Source: Burkholderiales bacterium
Lineage (GTDB): Bacteria; Pseudomonadota; Gammaproteobacteria; Burkholderiales; Burkholderiaceae_C
Length of the DNA stretch: 54,206 bases
Direction: 5' to 3'
Assembly: GCA_031376995.1 (NCBI GenBank)
Contig: JANMEO010000183.1
Span: 1 to 54,206 of the forward strand
Of this stretch, positions 7,842 through 47,587 are shown piece by piece. The stretch's first letter is position 1. Every line of letters begins with the position of its first letter. The position numbers and the translations under genes are program-made. A model generated the notes under the pieces. It made no database searches. It saw only the letters and a program-made list of their open reading frames with translations, and was not told the DNA's origin.

Positions 7842-8915
7842 ATGCCATCCAGAGTATTTCCCATGAATGCGATTCTTATAAAAGCAACGTTGTTGACATT
7901 CACGCTGTGTCTCTCTCTCACAGCTCAAGGCCAAACCAATGCTCACAAAATTGTGACGGGTCCAGAAACCGGAACCTACATCAAGATCGGTGAAGATCTT
8001 TCCAAGTACGTGGCTCAGCCTGCGGGCATTTCTCTTCTAGTCATCCCATCCAAGGGGTCGGTTGAAAACATCCAACGACTGCGCCATGAGCCTAGGGTTC
8101 GCCTGGCCTTGGCGCAATCCGACGTGTACCGTGCTTATACCAACCTCATGGTTGGCGGCAACGTGGCCGCAGGCAAACTGATCCAACCGCTGCGCGTCGT
8201 GCTTCCCCTTTACAACGAAGAAATTCACGTCGTTGTCCGGGCAGACTCCCCACTGGTTAACTTGCGCGACATTCAAGGCAAGCGAATCAACATCGGGCCA
8301 CTGGGTAGCGGCACCGCCATGACCGCTACCACTCTCTACCAAACCTTGTTTGGCGAGGAAATTCCTGAAAACCTGATCAGCACCGACACCAATGAAGTCG
8401 CCCTTGGCAAGCTGGCCAATGACAACGGCGCCGAAGTGGTTTTTGTCGTTTCAGGGCAGCCTGTGGGTTTATTCACGAACATGAACCCCGGAGTTGAGCA
8501 GCATTTTAAACTTTTGCGATTCGATCGCTCTCACCCTACCGAGCAAGCTGCTGAATCTGTTTACGAATCCACTTTGATTGAGCGTCAAAGCTACCCCAGC
8601 TGGCTTGCCGAAGATCTGCCCAGCTTGGCCACCAAGACCCTGTTGGTCACATACGACTACATCAATCCAGCGACGCGCAAGATGCTGGTGAAGTTCACGC
8701 AAAATCTTTGCAGCCAGTTTCAAACCTTGCAAACCCAAGGGCATGCCAAGTGGCAACAAGTTCGCATTGAGCAGCCCCCGCTAGGCAGAGGATGGCAGTA
8801 TTATGGGGCAACCAAAGCGGTCTTAGACAAATGCATCAACGAAGGTCACTCATCCAGACAACTCGTCTGCTCAGCCGATGATGCGGCCCTAGGTCTTTGT
8901 GGTCCGGCCCGCTGA
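7842..8915 (+). CDS. Periplasmic solute-binding protein, TAXI-family-like (TRAP-type receptor fold), paralog 1
   Basis: Signal peptide (..LCLSLTAQGQ). TAXI-like N-terminal motif IVTGPETGTYIKIGEDLSKY...SKGSVENIQRL...LALAQSDVY and GKRINIGPLGSGT. Alternative start at 7863. Confidence 0.7.
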   Translation: MPSRVFPMNAILIKATLLTFTLCLSLTAQGQTNAHKIVTGPETGTYIKIGEDLSKYVAQPAGISLLVIPSKGSVENIQRLRHEPRVRLALAQSDVYRAYTNLMVGGNVAAGKLIQPLRVVLPLYNEEIHVVVRADSPLVNLRDIQGKRINIGPLGSGTAMTATTLYQTLFGEEIPENLISTDTNEVALGKLANDNGAEVVFVVSGQPVGLFTNMNPGVEQHFKLLRFDRSHPTEQAAESVYESTLIERQSYPSWLAEDLPSLATKTLLVTYDYINPATRKMLVKFTQNLCSQFQTLQTQGHAKWQQVRIEQPPLGRGWQYYGATKAVLDKCINEGHSSRQLVCSADDAALGLCGPAR

Positions 8916-9097
8916 GGGCAATTTTTGATCATCACCCAATGCTAATGAAGGGGCGCTGAGACCCACGGGTAATCCCATCTCGCCCCGCGCAGACCCCTGA
9001 CTTGATTGTTCAGCGCCAGATGAAAACGTCAAACATCATCGACCCGCCCCAAGCGACATTAACTTTTTGAGGCTCAAAGACACAGAATTTCTCCGGA

Positions 9098-10156
9098 GTG
9101 TTGTCCATGAATGCCGTTCCTATCAAAATATGTCTTTCAGCATGGGTGCTTTGCACCTCCTTGACAGCCCTAGGTCAAACCGAGTCGCACAAAATTGTGA
9201 CTGGCCCAGAAACAGGAACCTACATCAAGATTGGTGAAGAGCTTTCCAAGTACGTGGCCCAACCTGCAGGCATTTCTCTTCAAGTCCTTCCATCCAAGGG
9301 GTCTGTTGAAAACATCCAACGACTGCGCTATGAACCCAGGGTACGCCTGGCCTTGGCGCAATCCGACGTGTACCGTGCCTATACGAACCTCATGGTTGGC
9401 GGCAACGTGGCAGCAGGCAAACTGATTCAACCCCTGCGCGTTGTCCTCCCACTTTACAACGAAGAAATTCATGTGGTTGTTCGGGCAGACTCTCCAATGG
9501 TTAACTTGCGCGACATTCAAGGCAAGCGAATCAACATCGGGCCGCTGGGTAGCGGCACCGCCATGACCGCAACCACCCTCTACCAAACCTTGTTTGGCGA
9601 ACAAATCCCTGAAAACCTGATCAGCACCGACACCAATGAAGCCGCGCTTGAGAAGCTGGCTAATAACAATGGCTCTGAAGTGGTCTTTGTCGTTTCTGGT
9701 CAGCCTGTGAGTTTATTCACGAACATGAGCCCCGGGGTTGAAGAACATTTCAAACTTTTGCGATTCGACCGCTCTCACCCTACCGAGCAGGCCGCCGAAT
9801 CTGTTTACCAATCCACCTTGATTGAGCGCAAAAGCTACCCGAGCTGGATCACTGAAGATCTGCCCAGCTTGGCTACCAAAACACTGCTGGTCACCTACGA
9901 CTTCAACACCCCAGAGACGCGCCAGATGCTTGTGCAATTCACGCACAGCCTATGCAGCCAGTTCCACACCTTGCAAACCCAGGGGCATGCCAAGTGGAAA
10001 CAGGTGCGCATTGAGCAACCGCCCCTAGGCCGTGGCTGGCAGTACTTCGGACCAACCAAAAATATCCTGAATCAGTGCGCCAACGAGCAAGCGCTGCCTA
10101 ACAACTCCACTTGCTCACGCCAAGATCTCATCTTGGGCTTTTGCAACAGTCGCTGA
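9098..10156 (+). CDS. Periplasmic solute-binding protein, TAXI-family-like, paralog 2 (likely start ATG 9107)
   Basis: Roughly 85-90 percent identical by eye to the 7842-8915 product over the mature domain. The signal peptide and the Cys-containing C-terminal tail diverge. Confidence 0.7.
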   Translation: MLSMNAVPIKICLSAWVLCTSLTALGQTESHKIVTGPETGTYIKIGEELSKYVAQPAGISLQVLPSKGSVENIQRLRYEPRVRLALAQSDVYRAYTNLMVGGNVAAGKLIQPLRVVLPLYNEEIHVVVRADSPMVNLRDIQGKRINIGPLGSGTAMTATTLYQTLFGEQIPENLISTDTNEAALEKLANNNGSEVVFVVSGQPVSLFTNMSPGVEEHFKLLRFDRSHPTEQAAESVYQSTLIERKSYPSWITEDLPSLATKTLLVTYDFNTPETRQMLVQFTHSLCSQFHTLQTQGHAKWKQVRIEQPPLGRGWQYFGPTKNILNQCANEQALPNNSTCSRQDLILGFCNSR

Positions 10157-10172
10157 TTGTCACCCTAAGCGC

Positions 10173-10201
10173 GGAACTGAACCGGCTCCCTCGACCACTC
10201 A
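10173..10201 (+). promoter_or_regulatory. hrp box (HrpL/ECF-sigma type promoter): GGAACT-N16-CCACTCA
   Basis: GGAACT at 10173-10178, a 16-nt spacer at 10179-10194, and CCACTCA at 10195-10201. Intergenic, correctly oriented, about 165 nt upstream of ATG 10367, and near a T3SS cluster. Confidence 0.55.
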
Positions 10202-10366
10202 GCAGTAACAGTTTGTTTTTGTGCCGTTACCAGCCCTCTTATTTTTTCAACATCCAGTCCCTTTTTGTTTGTTTTGCTTTTGCAGACAAACATGAGGGCA
10301 TCTTAGATCTGCCTGAAGTTTACGTTGTGACTTAGTCTACCCAATTTGCCAATCAGAGGCTCGTTC

Positions 10367-11500
10367 ATGTTCAAGTCCCATCTCCCCATTAACGTCCAGT
10401 TATCTTTAAGCCGAAACCTGACAGCCACAGCCTGCTTGGTGCTTGGCTTGACGATGCTGCCGGCCCATGCTCAAGTCACAGGCGAAACAAATGCACGCAG
10501 TTTATTGAAAGAAAACCGAGTTGAAGAAGCTTTGGCAGCGATTGAGACTGAACTCAAAGAGCACCCCCGTGATGGTCCTCTTTGGCTGCTCAAAGGTACA
10601 GCAATGTCAATGAGCGACCGAAAAGACGATGCAGTTCGTCTTTTCAGAAAAATGATCCAAGACAGGATGGAAGTGGCTTCAGCCTATAACAATCTTGCTG
10701 TGATTTATACCGAGCGTGGCGACTTTGAGTCAGCGAAAATTGCTCTGGAGTCAGCGATACGCACCAAGCCTGAGTATGCCGTTGCGCTGCGCAATTTGGG
10801 TAACGTCTACGCCAATTTGGCTGGCATGTCTTACAAGCGCGCCCTTCAGTTGGATGAGTCGGACCACAATCTCTCAGCCAGACTGACGCATCTCGGAGAC
10901 ATGCTTGGGAAAAAATTTGATCAGCGCCTTGGCCCCCCTCAGTTTGCCAATCCAGCGGAGTCTCAAGCGGAATCCGGCAGAGCTCCAACGCGCAGATTTG
11001 ACCCATCAGCCCCACAAGTTGCCAGCGCAGCAGTGGCCGCACCGACCGAACCCGTCATTATTCCCAGCAGGTCTCAGGTTACATCCAAATCTGTTAATAC
11101 CGCCTATGCTCAATATGCGAGTGCTTCTGTGGCCGTTGAGCCGGTTATTATTCCCGCCAAAGCGCCAACCATCATCTCTGGCCAGAATGTGACTCAAAAG
11201 CAGGCCATGGCTTATCCTACCGCCGCCAGATATGCTCAAAACACCAACGTTCATTACGGAAGTGCAGAGCCTTCTCAAGCTGCACGCCAGCCCAACCAGC
11301 CCAGTCTGCCAGTGACATTGCAGTGGAAACAAACCCCTACAAACTCGCTCCCCGCAGTGAGAACGGCGTATTACGTGTCTTCACCAATGGCCACCCCCAA
11401 AGCCCCAGCACCAGTCACCTTGGTCTCCGCTGTCACTGCAGCGACTGTCGGGGTCTATTGTGATGGTGTACGGGTCACAGGTGACAAATGCCCTCCTTGA
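10367..11500 (+). CDS. Secreted/periplasmic TPR-repeat protein with a Pro/Ala/Ser-rich C-terminal half
   Basis: ATG 10367 follows AGAGG. Signal peptide ..CLVLGLTMLPAHA/QV. TPR-like helices (AYNNLAVIYTERGDFESAKIALESAIRTKPEYAVALRNLGNVY). Low-complexity tail with a duplicated EPVIIP motif. The ORF track starts at TTG 10346. Confidence 0.75.
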   Translation: MFKSHLPINVQLSLSRNLTATACLVLGLTMLPAHAQVTGETNARSLLKENRVEEALAAIETELKEHPRDGPLWLLKGTAMSMSDRKDDAVRLFRKMIQDRMEVASAYNNLAVIYTERGDFESAKIALESAIRTKPEYAVALRNLGNVYANLAGMSYKRALQLDESDHNLSARLTHLGDMLGKKFDQRLGPPQFANPAESQAESGRAPTRRFDPSAPQVASAAVAAPTEPVIIPSRSQVTSKSVNTAYAQYASASVAVEPVIIPAKAPTIISGQNVTQKQAMAYPTAARYAQNTNVHYGSAEPSQAARQPNQPSLPVTLQWKQTPTNSLPAVRTAYYVSSPMATPKAPAPVTLVSAVTAATVGVYCDGVRVTGDKCPP

Positions 11501-11521
11501 AAAAAGAGCAGACTTTAGGTA

Positions 11522-11547
11522 GCCCCCATTGATAAAACCTTGGGGGC
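11522..11547. terminator. Hairpin between convergent genes (GCCCCCA-N12-TGGGGGC)
   Basis: 7-bp GC-rich stem between the TPR gene stop (11500) and the EEP gene stop (11555). No clear U-tract. Confidence 0.3.
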
Positions 11548-11554
11548 CATTCCA

Positions 11555-12349
11555 TCAGTCCAAACTTTCTAGCTCAACAATCAAGGGCAAATGGTCTGAC
11601 ATGCGTGCCCAGGCGGGCCCCTTAGGGACATGGCCAGAGACGCAACGGTAACCGCGCATATAAATCCTATCGAGTGAAAACAAGGGGATTTTTGATGGGA
11701 ATGTGCGCATTGCCGGCTGTCCTGGACACACGGCTCGACTCAATCCAATGGCTCGCATCGGAGCGTCGAGTTTCTCACCCCAGTCATTGAAGTCACCGGC
11801 CACCAAAAGCCGATCAGTAGGTGGCACATGAAGTCGAATATAACGAGCCAGACGCTCAACCTGACGCACTCGACTTGCGTGCATCAACCCCAGGTGGGCC
11901 ACGATGGCGTGCACCAAGAGCCCCCTCCAGATCACAGGCACATGCAACAGTCCACGCTGCTCAAACCTGTGGTCTGAAACATCGTGATGGCTGATAGCCC
12001 CCAGGGGCCAGCGCGATAGCAGTGCATTACCGTGCTCACCTTCGCTTGTGACAGCATTGGTCCGGTACGCGACGACGTAGCCCTCTGGAGCCAAAAAATG
12101 TGCCTGCCCAACCTCTGGCCAGCCCATGGATGCACGCCTAAAGTGACGTGCATGCCCATGATGAAAGCCATGGACCTCCTGAAGAAAGACCAAGTCAGCA
12201 TCAAGGCTCTCAACAGCCAAGCCCAGATTGTGAATTTCCAGGCGCTTGGCGGGACCAATCCCGCGCACCCCCTTGTGAATGTTGTAGGTTGCCAGGCGCA
12301 TCAAGCTCTTCTCGGGCATAGATGCAGAGGATGCCTGCGCAGAGGTCAT
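11555..12349 (-). CDS. Endonuclease/exonuclease/phosphatase (EEP) family protein
   Basis: Motifs LATYNIHKG, FLQEV, GDFNDW and SDHLPL. Confidence 0.85.
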   Translation of the reverse strand: MTSAQASSASMPEKSLMRLATYNIHKGVRGIGPAKRLEIHNLGLAVESLDADLVFLQEVHGFHHGHARHFRRASMGWPEVGQAHFLAPEGYVVAYRTNAVTSEGEHGNALLSRWPLGAISHHDVSDHRFEQRGLLHVPVIWRGLLVHAIVAHLGLMHASRVRQVERLARYIRLHVPPTDRLLVAGDFNDWGEKLDAPMRAIGLSRAVCPGQPAMRTFPSKIPLFSLDRIYMRGYRCVSGHVPKGPAWARMSDHLPLIVELESLD

Positions 12350-15768: not shown

Positions 15769-15986
15769 ACGAAGACCTTTAGAGAGTTGAAATTTGAAAC
15801 GATCTAACAAAGTCCAAGATTGTAGATCGGCCAACCAGTCACCCAGGTGATTGGGTTGGTCGATCAAATCAAGGTGATGCTGGGCGCAGCGGCCGATCTT
15901 ACCCATCGACAACGAAATCACCGCATGATCTCACTACCCCCTGCCTGCCATCCTCACCGCCCAAGCGACCCATGAATACAGCATCT

Positions 15987-17522
15987 TCAGGTTGTATGGG
16001 TATACAAAACCAACAGGCCAAACAGCCCCAAGCACAAGGTCAAAGCACTCACCCAGCGCCTCAAGCGTCGATGCTGCAAGATCAGACGCTCAATGAGCCG
16101 CTCATCTGCCGCCGGTTTGGGCCGCAGAGCCTGATGCAATAAACGTGGCAACTCAGGGAACAGCTGCACATAGCGAGGGGCTTCTTTGCGCATACGGGAT
16201 AACAGACCTCGCCACCCCACTTGCTCGTTCATCCAGCGCTCAAGGAACGGCTTGGCGGTCAGCCATAAATCGAGCTCTGGATCCAGTTCACGCCCAAGGC
16301 CCTCGACATTGAGCAGTGTCTTTTGCAGCAGCACCAACTGCGGCTGAATCGCCACATTGAAACGCCGAGAGGCCTGAAACAAACGCAATAGCACCTGACC
16401 CAACGAAATGTCCTTCAGTGGACGATCAAAATGGGGCTCACACACGGCCCGCACCGCCCCTTCAAGCTCATCCACCCTGGTTTCTGGCGGCACCCACCCA
16501 GACTCTAAGTGCAGCTCAGCCACACGCTTGTAATCACGCTGGAAAAAAGCAATGAAGTTTTGCGCCAAATACTCTTTGTCAAATTCAGTCAAGGTTCCCA
16601 CAATGCCAAAATCAAGCGCGATGTAACGACCGAAGGTTTGCGGGGCCAAGCTGACCTGAATGTTGCCAGGATGCATGTCCGCATGAAAAAAGCCATCGCG
16701 AAACACTTGCGTAAAAAAAAGAGTAACCCCGTCACGAGCGAGCTTGGGCACATCGACACCCGCTTCTTTCAACTGGCGAATTTGACTGATCGGCACACCC
16801 TCCATGCGCTGCATGACCATGACGTTGGGGGTGCACCATTGCCAATAGATCTCAGGTATCAAAACCAAGTCCAAACCATTCATGTTACGGCGCAGCTGAG
16901 CCGCATTGGCCGCCTCCCGTACCAAGTCAAGCTCATCATGGAGGTGGTTGCTGAACTCAGCAACCACCTCCCGGGGGCGTAGTCGACGACCGTCGTGAAA
17001 CAACCACTCAGCCCAGCGTGCGATGGTGCGCAACAAAGCCAAATCGTCATCGATCACCGCCAGCATCCCTGGCCGAAGCACTTTAACGGCCACTTTTCGG
17101 CCATCGAGCAAAACTGCAAAATGAACTTGTGCAATCGAAGCACTCGCGACAGCATCGATCTCGAAATCAGAAAAAACATCTTGAATTGAACGCGCAAAAG
17201 CATCCTCGACCAAGGTGCGTGCAGTCAGCCCAGAAAATGGTGGTACACGGTCTTGTAACAGCGCGAGCTCATCGGCCAAATCTGTGGGTAACAAGTCTCG
17301 CCGGGTGGACAGCACTTGACCAAACTTGACAAATACGGGCCCCAGGTGCTCCAACGCCAAGCGCAAACGGACAGCCCTGGTGTGGCGCAAACGGCGCCCC
17401 CATGTGAACAGACGAACCAGGCCACGCAACCACGCCTGATTAAAGTGATCCAAAACAAATTCGTCAAGACCAAACCGACGCACTGTATAGGCAATGACTG
17501 CCAATCGACTCAAATGACGCAT
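15987..17522 (-). CDS. ubiB: Ubiquinone biosynthesis regulatory protein kinase UbiB
   Basis: 511 aa from [22 protein letters not shown], an ABC1/UbiB kinase-like domain ([16 protein letters not shown]) and C-terminal TM helices. The start abuts the ubiJ stop. Confidence 0.93.
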
Positions 17523-29999: not shown

Positions 30000-30028
30000 C
30001 ATGGCCATCGCTAGCTGCGATGGCCATG
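30000..30028 (+). terminator. Perfect hairpin just after the mdh stop (CATGGCCATCGC-TAGCT-GCGATGGCCATG)
   Basis: 12-bp perfect stem with a 5-nt loop, 8 nt after the TGA. No U-tract, so intrinsic terminator function is uncertain. Confidence 0.4.
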
Positions 30029-30057
30029 AGATACGTCATGGCGCTCTTATCTCATAG

Positions 30058-30544
30058 GACTTACGCAAAACTCATGATCAGGATATACCCCTCGGAACTG
30101 AAGATGCTGGGTCGATGGGTCGTTTTGAGAATGGAGATGCAAGAGTTAGGCGTTGGTCAGCTGATCAAGATCAAAGATTTTCCCAAAGGACATCGGGTCA
30201 AACTGTTCCGGCTTGTGGTGTCTACTCGCCGCACGGATTTTGTCCTGACAAACGACCTCACTCAAAACTCTTCGTCGGATGCAGACACCGTGTGTGCCTG
30301 GCGTTGGAAGATTGAGCAGTTTCACCGAGAAGCCAAACAACTCACCGGGATCGAACGCTGCCAATGCAGAAAAGCTCGGATCCAGCGCAACCACATTGCC
30401 TGTGCTTTTTTGGTTTCGACGCGTTTAGCGCAAGTAGCCAAGAAAACCGGCAAAACCTTGTACCGCATCAAGCACGGATTACTCGATGACTACCTCCGCT
30501 CGCAACTCAAAGCGCCTGAGATCTCGATGACTTTTGCGTAAGTC
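30058..30544 (+). mobile_element. 487-bp IS deletion derivative bounded by 18-bp terminal inverted repeats
   Basis: Left TIR GACTTACGCAAAACTCAT (30058-30075) matches the reverse complement of 30527-30544 (GACTTACGCAAAAGTCAT) at 17/18 positions. The interior encodes only a transposase C-terminus. No target-site duplication is evident. Confidence 0.65.
30077..30541 (+). pseudogene. Truncated DDE transposase (C-terminal part only, IS4/IS701-like)
   Basis: Contains ...VKLFRLVVSTRRTDFVLTNDL... and the R-x3-E-x6-K signature region WRWKIEQFHREAKQLTG. The N-terminal catalytic part is missing. The stop TAA lies inside the right TIR. Confidence 0.6.
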
Positions 30545-47066: not shown

Positions 47067-47426
47067 TCACTCCCAATCTAGGGCGCCTTTTTTCCACTCA
47101 TACACAAACCCCACAACCAAGATACCCAAGAAAACCATCATGGCCCAAAAGCCAACTGGGCCAATCTGCTTGAGCGAGATGGCCCAGGGAAACAGAAAAG
47201 CGATTTCCAGATCAAACAAAATGAAGAGAATGGCGACCAAGTAGTACCGCACGTCAAACTTCATTCGAGCATCTTCAAAGGCCTCGAAACCGCACTCATA
47301 GGGAGAATTTTTGGCGGCATCAGGGCGATGAGGGCCCATGATGAATCCGATCACTTGAGGAGCCACCCCAACGCCAACCCCCACCAAAATGAAAAGAAGG
47401 ATGGGCAGATACTCGTTGAGATTCAT
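47067..47426 (-). CDS. nuoA: NADH-quinone oxidoreductase subunit A
   Basis: 119 aa from [16 protein letters not shown], with SPYECGF. Start at ATG 47426. Confidence 0.95.
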
Positions 47427-47502: not shown

Positions 47503-47587
47503 TGGTGCCGACGGCGAGACTCGAACTCGCACAGCTTTCGCCACTACCCCCTCAAGATAGCGTGTCTACCAATTTCACCACGTCGGC
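47503..47587 (-). tRNA. tRNA-Leu (anticodon GAG)
   Basis: Manual fold of the reverse complement: acceptor GCCGACG/CGTCGGC, anticodon arm CTATC-TTGAGGG-GGTAG, long variable arm, T arm GCGAG-TTCGAGT-CTCGC, discriminator A, encoded CCA. Confidence 0.92.

Follow-up and report, generated by a model that had tools for sequence, protein, structure and literature searches.

The HrpL/hrp-box scheme is textbook knowledge for gammaproteobacterial plant pathogens. In the Hrp1 family of type III secretion systems (T3SSs), as known from Pseudomonas syringae, Erwinia, Pantoea, Dickeya, and Pectobacterium, HrpL promoters have the consensus GGAACY-N15/16-CCACNNA, and this motif, the hrp box, is found before T3SS operons, effector candidates, and non-effector genes. 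A betaproteobacterial Hrp1-like cluster has been described in Herbaspirillum seropedicae and H. rubrisubalbicans, where hrpL is present and boxes resembling GGAACC-N15-CCACTCA precede several operons (PMC3487950). For P. syringae, two accounts of the HrpL regulon describe boxes before genes that encode neither T3SS parts nor translocated effectors (PMC3879358, PMC4544800). Here we examine a 54,206-nucleotide stretch of DNA (the window), which is contig JANMEO010000183.1 of the assembly GCA_031376995.1, assigned to a Burkholderiales bacterium; a literature search for the accessions of the sample and of the metagenome-assembled genome (MAG) returned no paper. We judge it likely, from sequence comparison, that an hrp box at positions 10173-10201 is a functional promoter for an HrpL-type extracytoplasmic function (ECF) sigma factor, that it drives a gene for an exported tetratricopeptide repeat (TPR) protein, and that this protein acts in the cell envelope as a non-effector member of the T3SS regulon.

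Set beside the described systems, the window and its relatives show the same box consensus and the same placement of the motif before a T3SS operon, effector candidates, and non-effector genes. The T3SS genes also follow the order of the Hrp1 clusters (hrpQ/sctD-hrcN-hrpO-hrpP-hrcQ-R-S-T-U). Unlike those clusters, however, the sctD-U operon of the window lineage stands alone, with no hrpL, hrpJ, or hrcV beside it, and its host is an uncultured member of the Burkholderiales. The Herbaspirillum cluster, compared here by its description, is a single 21-kb unit with hrpL at its end and hrpG nearby (PMC3487950), whereas the cluster considered here is split. Aquabacterium sp. A7-Y (GCA_026153205.1; locus L015) is the closest named organism with a T3SS of this type. 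It has the same sctD-U order, with hrp boxes before sctD and other genes, but its cluster is unsplit (hrpL, hrpJ-like ... sctV-sctD...), and the 21 kb examined showed no TPR gene, no TAXI gene, and nothing XopZ-like. Outside the T3SS operon, the most conserved members of the candidate regulon in the window lineage are the exported TPR protein and solute-binding proteins of the TAXI type, which occurred in no other HrpL-type locus examined. As far as the P. syringae accounts describe its non-effector members, the likeness to them is one of concept only, since the gene families differ. Altogether, we regard this as an HrpL/hrp-box system of the known kind whose host group is new, whose cluster is split, and whose conserved non-effector members include a new one; its regulatory logic is unsurprising.

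The elements on which this reading rests are as follows.

10173-10201, + strand: hrp box (putative HrpL-type ECF promoter), GGAACT-N16-CCACTCA; the sole exact match in the window
10173-10178, + strand: -35 element GGAACT; its columns are invariant in the alignment of upstream regions described below
10195-10201, + strand: -10 element CCACTCA; CCAC and the final A are invariant in the same alignment
10202-10366, + strand: predicted 5' leader, neither conserved nor unusually structured
10356-10359, + strand: ribosome-binding site GAGG, 7 nt before ATG 10367; part of a block, GAGG..GTTCATG, conserved in four lineages
10367-11500, + strand: gene for the TPR protein, predicted to be exported, 377 aa; Sec-type signal peptide ending ..LPAHA/Q (the slash marks the cleavage site), TPR region at residues ~39-180, disordered Pro/Ala/Ser/Thr-rich tail

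The letters at 10173-10201 of the + strand are GGAACTGAACCGGCTCCCTCGACCACTCA. A first-pass annotation of the window had reported an exact hrp box consensus at this place, and our pattern search of both strands (GGAACY-N15/16-CCACNNA, no mismatch) confirmed it. The intergenic region that contains the box (10157-10366) is 210 nt long, and the box has the orientation of the downstream gene. It starts 17 nt past the last stop-codon base of the upstream TAXI gene, which ends at 10156; 166 nt separate its end from ATG 10367, and sctU ends at 3689, about 6.5 kb upstream. All of these agree with the coordinates and distances given in that annotation (intergenic, 17 nt after the stop, ~165 nt before the ATG, 6.5 kb from the T3SS). 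Its chance expectation of about 0.05 matches per window was likewise close to what we obtained from dinucleotide-preserving shuffles, in which the mean was 0.06 and at least one match occurred in 6 of 100. Taken alone, one match in 54 kb therefore has a p of about 0.06 and is only suggestive. The significance of the box instead comes from comparative data, namely the boxes before orthologous genes and the excess of boxes over expectation. A position weight matrix derived from 84 independent sites gave a compatible picture: in the window and the 6 kb upstream of it, 10173-10201 was the only site above 14 bits.

We found an exact hrp box upstream of the TPR gene in five lineages, these being the window and the four loci listed here.

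L006, position 9808, gene strand: exact box, GGAACTGAACCAGCCCAATCGACCACTCA
L007, position 9836, gene strand: exact box, GGAACTGAATGCGCTTGACCGGCCACCTA
L010, position 9836, gene strand: exact box, GGAACTGATTGCCCCTGGCCAACCACCTA
L096, position 563, gene strand: exact box, GGAACTGAACCTGGCAGATGCACCACTCA

The TPR proteins of these five lineages are 48-100% identical to the window protein, and the distance from box to ATG is 86-166 nt across all five (86-155 nt in L006, L007, L010, and L096). All five boxes share the extended -35 form GGAACTGA. The orthologues found in the database are 71% (P0002, P0003), 52% (P0004, P0005), and 48% (P0006, P0007) identical to the window protein; beyond these, only distant Variovorax paralogues were found, and the TPR protein is a rare one. 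When we aligned the TPR-gene upstream regions of the window, L006, L007, and L010 (alignment A2), the only conserved blocks were the box (GGAACTGA ... CCAC..A) and the region of the ribosome-binding site and start codon (GAGG..GTTCATG.TCAAG). The spacer, the leader sequence, and the leader length all vary between lineages. Because the spacers differ, the orthologous boxes are neither assembly artefacts nor recent transfers of one identical segment.

The genomic contexts of these boxes differ. L006 and L010 are syntenic with the window, and contain sctT/U, a XopZ-like gene, two TAXI genes, and the TPR gene. In L007, a contig of the same MAG as the related locus L004, the TPR gene lies between bacA and urease (ure) genes and has kept its box, although the 21 kb examined contain no T3SS gene. 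L096, a short contig, comes from the sample that also gave L014. Neither L007 nor L096 has co-oriented T3SS or TAXI genes upstream of the TPR gene, and both keep the exact box. These data suggest that the TPR gene very probably belongs to the T3SS regulon. Separately, L006 (11406-12254, after the TPR gene) and L010 (8955-9782, before it) contain an extra open reading frame (ORF) of about 280 aa. Pfam gave it no significant match, only weak EF-hand ones in L006, and no equivalent ORF is present in the window.

We then considered hrp boxes elsewhere in the loci of this lineage. In 156 kb of sequence we found nine exact boxes, against 0.37 expected and a maximum of two in 200 first-order Markov simulations. 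All nine share the strand of the T3SS and TPR genes and precede sctD, TAXI, and TPR genes. With one mismatch allowed, the window together with the contig that extends it (L001) contains five sites, all on the + strand. The boxes before sctD are listed below.

L001, position 2026: TGAACT-N15-CCACTCA, one mismatch, 28 nt before the sctD start codon
L004, position 3348: exact
L013, position 9945: exact
L015 (Aquabacterium), position 9926: one mismatch

An alignment of the sctD upstream regions shows the box and the ribosome-binding site at a fixed distance in four lineages, including Aquabacterium. Of these loci, L004 is from a related MAG labelled Burkholderiales, whose SctU is 72% identical and which was the only relative recovered by an SctU search of genome contigs. 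L013 and L014 represent one lineage, with an SctD 53% identical to that of the window lineage; they also have one-mismatch boxes before a XopP-like gene and before a small divergent gene. Exact boxes precede both TAXI genes in L010 (5780, 7116) and the single one seen in L004 (14949), and no exact box stands before the TAXI genes of the window and L006. As a positive control, the same scan recovered the boxes before known Hrp operons of Pantoea pPATH and a Pseudomonas plasmid.

A further box-like sequence, CGAACC-N16-CCAC[CA]CA, was observed at the same place inside sctQ in L004 (7526-7554), L013 (13992-14020), L014 (14185-14213), and L015 (13972-14000). It has one mismatch and occurs in three lineages, L013 and L014 being the same lineage. 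This sequence could reflect coding conservation, or it could be an internal promoter for a short C-terminal SctQ product.

Several points weigh against reading 10173-10201 as an HrpL-type promoter. Many ECF sigma promoters share the GGAAC half of the motif, its -35. An unrelated dispersed repeat in the window also contains the 10 nt (CGGAACTGAA) with which the box region begins. At L097 (JGI 3300083085), the 263 nt available upstream (1-263) of the most distant TPR orthologue, P0007 (BLASTP identity 48%), contain no box even when one mismatch is allowed. Tblastn with HrpL-type sigmas of Pantoea, Pseudomonas, and Mitsuaria found nothing in the window, L001, L004, or L006-L010. Lastly, sctV, sctJ, sctC, sctL, hrpJ, and the regulators were present in none of the lineage loci seen (L001, L004, L013/L014), so that the sequences covered yield neither the sigma nor a complete T3SS for this genome. 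No hrpL, hrpS, or hrpR is linked to sctD-U in the lineage (L001, L004, L013), but such regulators are linked to the cluster in Aquabacterium. The T3SS cluster of the lineage is split, and its sctD-U operon has its own hrp box; the regulators must lie elsewhere, and their absence is not implied.

Two wider searches bear on the presence of an HrpL-type sigma. A profile search of a set of 5.8 billion proteins gave 2220 matches. None of the best 120 of these could be tied to the lineage, and all but two of the same 120 were at least 50% identical to a query sequence. A metagenome scan with an HrpL alignment yielded 80 JGI loci (L016-L095) with HrpL-like sigmas. None comes from the window lineage, the best SctD match being 44% over 124 aa; the sigmas are mostly 45-56% identical to Aquabacterium HrpL, and the contigs mostly have a G+C content of 59-71%. 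In about 28 of the 80, sctD, mostly together with sctN, adjoins the sigma gene, and the SctN proteins are 54-69% identical to that of the window lineage. These 80 loci contain 95 exact boxes in 758 kb, where about one would be expected. Typically, one box is found on the strand opposite the sigma gene, 200-700 nt upstream of it, which is the position of a divergent hrpJ-type operon. In Aquabacterium, SctU and SctD are 45% and 33% identical to those of the window lineage, and the unsplit cluster encodes two sigma-54 activators (hrpS-like), an ECF sigma that shares 35% identity with Pantoea HrpL (E 5e-35), an hrpJ-like gene, sctV, and sctD...sctU, with hrp boxes. Judging from this association in relatives, an HrpL-type sigma is very probably present in the window lineage as well. 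The first-pass annotation had proposed both that this organism has an HrpL-like ECF sigma regulon and that the TPR gene is part of it. Both proposals are supported as far as sequence alone can speak, mainly by the comparative evidence, which for the TPR gene includes the exact boxes before orthologues in five lineages.

Alternatively, 10173-10201 could be a promoter for a different ECF sigma, for example one of envelope stress, which recognizes GGAAC-N16-CCAC and is not a T3SS regulator. This would fit the wide occurrence of GGAAC-type -35 elements among ECF groups, the predicted export of the product to the envelope, and the fact that no HrpL gene was located in the window and lineage loci searched. 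The motif that is conserved, however, is the full one with the HrpL-specific CCACNNA -10. It stands before sctD-U in four lineages and also, at one mismatch, before a XopP-like effector gene, and it is about 95-fold enriched around HrpL-like sigma genes. Conversely, the Variovorax TPR paralogue, which has tad pilus neighbours and no T3SS genes in its locus, has no box within one mismatch upstream. Since the complete motif is found before sctD operons and goes together with HrpL-like sigma genes, we consider a different ECF sigma quite improbable.

It could also be proposed that most transcripts of the TPR gene arise by read-through out of the XopZ-like and TAXI genes, or start at an unrecognized promoter in the leader, with the box being dispensable or modulatory. 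From sctQ through to the TPR gene, every gene has the same orientation, with no intrinsic terminator between them (none was found in 7600-11700), and the leader is long, at 166 nt. Against this, L007 and L096 retain the exact box although no T3SS or TAXI gene lies upstream in the same orientation; the + strand of 7600-11700 gave no sigma-70-like promoter; and the leader sequence is unconserved whereas the box is conserved. Read-through may contribute to TPR expression within the window, but it leaves the box of L007 and L096 unexplained, and as the main source of TPR transcription it, like a leader promoter, has little probability. The leader itself has a fold z-score of -0.35 and no match in an Rfam search, and we set aside a structured leader or riboswitch on these grounds. 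For the start codon, we prefer ATG 10367 over the mechanical call at TTG 10346, because the block GAGG-N7-ATG(T/A)TCAAG is conserved in four lineages.

A chance match, or a functionless fragment of the CGGAACTGAA-containing repeat, is a very remote prospect that we regard as effectively refuted by the five-lineage footprint: at least one exact match does arise in 6% of shuffled windows and the repeat family (7720, 30084, 54142) does share 10 nt with the box region, but the exact bipartite motif is kept in five lineages whose flanks have diverged, the nine boxes against 0.37 expected all have the gene orientation, and the repeat copies lack a CCAC -10 and share nothing with the box past those first 10 nt.

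The repeat in question (TATACCCCTCGGAACTGAAGATGCYGGGTCG..., 31-58 nt) has copies at 30084-30141, 54142-54199, and 7720-7777 on the + strand and an inverted copy at 15963-16004. The copy at 30084-30141 lies inside a truncated DDE-transposase ORF (30020-30541), and the one at 54142-54199 is at the contig end. The copy at 7720-7777, upstream of TAXI gene 1, is weaker, and one also occurs in L006 at 7412. The repeat is probably the end of an insertion sequence (IS) or of an element resembling a miniature inverted-repeat transposable element (MITE). One of its copies deserves a line of its own.

7720-7777, + strand: dispersed repeat copy (family D2); GGAACT present, no CCAC -10, not counted as an hrp box

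The GGAACT at 7730 could be mistaken for a decayed hrp box of TAXI gene 1; we rejected it on the grounds that it has no CCAC -10 and is part of this repeat. Other candidate signals were also set aside. The Hrp2-type regulatory motif, the plant-inducible promoter (PIP)/hrpII box TTCG-N15/16-TTCG, has one match in the window, against 2.6 expected, and this match is not near the T3SS. A one-mismatch hrp site at 47359 is on the strand opposite the nuo genes, and we take it to be chance.

If the box is indeed an HrpL-type promoter, its operation can be outlined as follows. Once an HrpL-type ECF sigma, the dedicated T3SS sigma of the Hrp1 family, is made, RNA polymerase carrying it would bind GGAACT as the -35 and CCACTCA as the -10, and transcription would begin a few nucleotides past the -10, at about 10207-10210. 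The resulting mRNA would have a leader of ~160 nt and contain the gene 10367-11500; it is predicted to be monocistronic because the next downstream gene is convergent. Its product would be exported through the Sec pathway, which would place the TPR module and its long disordered tail in the cell envelope. In this way the TPR gene would share its expression with the sctD-U operon, and in sister lineages with the genes for the TAXI binding proteins as well.

The TPR protein begins with a basic n-region, a hydrophobic h-region, and an AHA/Q site, all conserved in orthologues, and its predicted route of export is the Sec pathway. It gives Pfam TPR matches and has three to four repeats. Residues about 36-190 are strongly conserved in an alignment of orthologues. 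AlphaFold2 modelled residues 39-180 as confident TPR helices, with a mean predicted local distance difference test score (pLDDT) above 90 for blocks 41-150. By comparison, residues 188-364 have a pLDDT below 50; they are predicted to be disordered, are poorly conserved, and are of low complexity (Pro/Ala/Ser/Thr/Gln-rich). PDB sequence and Foldseek searches returned only generic or designed TPRs and OGT/SPINDLY, and were uninformative on function; the OGT/SPINDLY likeness is that of generic consensus TPRs. NCBIfam gave weak similarity, well short of the cut-offs, to PilW (E 3e-8) and to SctY (E 1e-6), and a distant homologue carries the label TadD.

Small three- to four-repeat TPR modules are common to this protein, class II T3SS chaperones, PilF/PilW, and TadD. 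Unlike the TPR pilotins and lipoproteins, the window protein has no lipobox cysteine at its cleavage site (..AHA/Q), and it has a disordered tail of about 180 residues. Its gene, unlike those of class II chaperones and pilotins, does not adjoin translocator or secretin genes. Class II T3SS chaperones (SycD/PcrH/IpgC) are cytoplasmic proteins of about 150-170 aa whose genes adjoin translocator genes. We ruled out this identity for the window protein, as it is 377 aa long, has a signal-peptide-like N-terminus, and has no translocator neighbours. The hydrophobic, signal-like N-terminus also argues against a typical translocated effector.

The nearest paralogue family is represented by Variovorax sp. 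W2I14 (L098, 5001-6140), in which a Cds6_C/NTF2-like C-terminal domain replaces the disordered tail. Next to this Variovorax gene are a gene for a YkuD L,D-transpeptidase and a cluster of tad/flp pilus genes, the secretin gene among them. The PilW/TadD-like labels and the Variovorax tad neighbourhood are weak hints of a link between the TPR family and secretin or pilus assembly, and we treat them as leads only.

Our best reading of the TPR protein, given these features, is a putative exported protein-binding module that acts in the envelope as a non-effector member of the regulon. More speculatively, it might help to assemble or anchor the envelope-spanning part of the apparatus, or work with the TAXI proteins. 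A broader idea, tentative and on balance doubtful, is that the TPR protein, perhaps along with the hrp-boxed orphan TAXI proteins, forms an unrecognized periplasmic accessory module of a Burkholderiales branch of Hrp1-type T3SSs. Such a module could be a ring assembly or anchoring factor, or a regulon arm that senses host metabolites, and selection would then keep the TPR gene under direct HrpL control even after it has left the T3SS locus.

The remaining features of the T3SS region of the window, all of which are on the same strand as the TPR gene, are these.

1-712, + strand: sctQ (hrcQ), 5' end outside the window; FliMN_C, with HrcQa_N in the full gene in L001
709-1380, + strand: sctR; Pfam FliP
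1392-1655, + strand: sctS; Bac_export_3 gene called at L001 7404-7667
1758-2549, + strand: sctT; Bac_export_1
2598-3689, + strand: sctU; Bac_export_2, 45% identical to Aquabacterium SctU
3650-3678, + strand: weak candidate hrp box, TGAACT-N16-CCACCCA (one mismatch), inside the 3' end of sctU
4091-7675, + strand: 1194-aa ORF, candidate XopZ-family type III effector; NCBIfam NF041378 (E 3.7e-43, short of the curated cut-off)
7842-8915, + strand: TAXI solute-binding protein gene 1 (likely start ATG 7863); NMT1_3, TIGR02122 TRAP_TAXI
9098-10156, + strand: TAXI solute-binding protein gene 2 (likely start ATG 9107); tandem paralogue, 81% identical to gene 1

The Logan contig L001, which has the same SctR, extends 6012 nt upstream of window position 1, and the operon order assembled from L001 and the window is sctD-N-O-P-Q-R-S-T-U. 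Upstream of sctD, L001 has two small unknown genes on the other strand and then ppa; in the same position L004 has unknown ORFs and L013 has giant ORFs. The operon order equals that of the Hrp1 clusters of Pantoea pPATH and a Pseudomonas antarctica plasmid. In a tblastn search of 72,556 plasmids with SctU, the best matches were Pantoea Hrp1 (36-39%), while Ralstonia Hrp2 and Bradyrhizobium gave about 32%. By gene order and best similarity, then, this T3SS is Hrp1-like. Among the clusters compared, it is closest to those of Aquabacterium and Pantoea Hrp1, both of which encode HrpL.

We considered the site at 3650-3678 as a promoter for the XopZ-like gene, but downgraded it, as it lies within sctU coding sequence and its -10 is not conserved in L006, L010, or L013. 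The -10 is kept only in the window and L004, and the site is probably a by-product of the sctU coding sequence. Large ORFs of 1119-1221 aa directly follow sctU in L004, L006, and L010, and are likened to the XopZ-like ORF by position; in L013/L014 the XopP-like gene takes this place. No TRAP membrane partner for the TAXI genes was found in the window.

The rest of the window is housekeeping in content, with aspS, ubiB, sdh, citrate synthase, mdh, and a 14-subunit nuo operon. The G+C content of the host is about 52%, and its AspS is 81% identical to that of Roseateles/Mitsuaria sp. 7. A tRNA gene at 47506-47587 (- strand), between secG and the nuo operon, is the sole Rfam match in the window at the gathering threshold. 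A T3SS of different gene order occurs in the Mitsuaria sp. 7 plasmid NZ_CP011515.1 (L011, 16039-33415). It has its own ECF sigma of 240 aa, 33% identical to Pantoea HrpL, and sits between an FmdB-family zinc-ribbon gene and ubiB; a scan of this locus gave no exact hrp box. The housekeeping arrangement aspS-DUF502-FmdB ... ubiB-sugar transferase-galE-manC flanks both this T3SS and the T3SS/TPR region of the window.

The finding extends a known regulatory scheme and overturns nothing about T3SS regulation. It indicates that the HrpL/hrp-box scheme operates, or at least is under selection, in uncultured Burkholderiales of low G+C content with scattered T3SS genes. Scans of such genomes for GGAACY-N15/16-CCACNNA should list effectors together with accessory genes. 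The exported TPR protein and the TAXI-type proteins are, in turn, conserved non-effector candidates for envelope-side functions in type III secretion.

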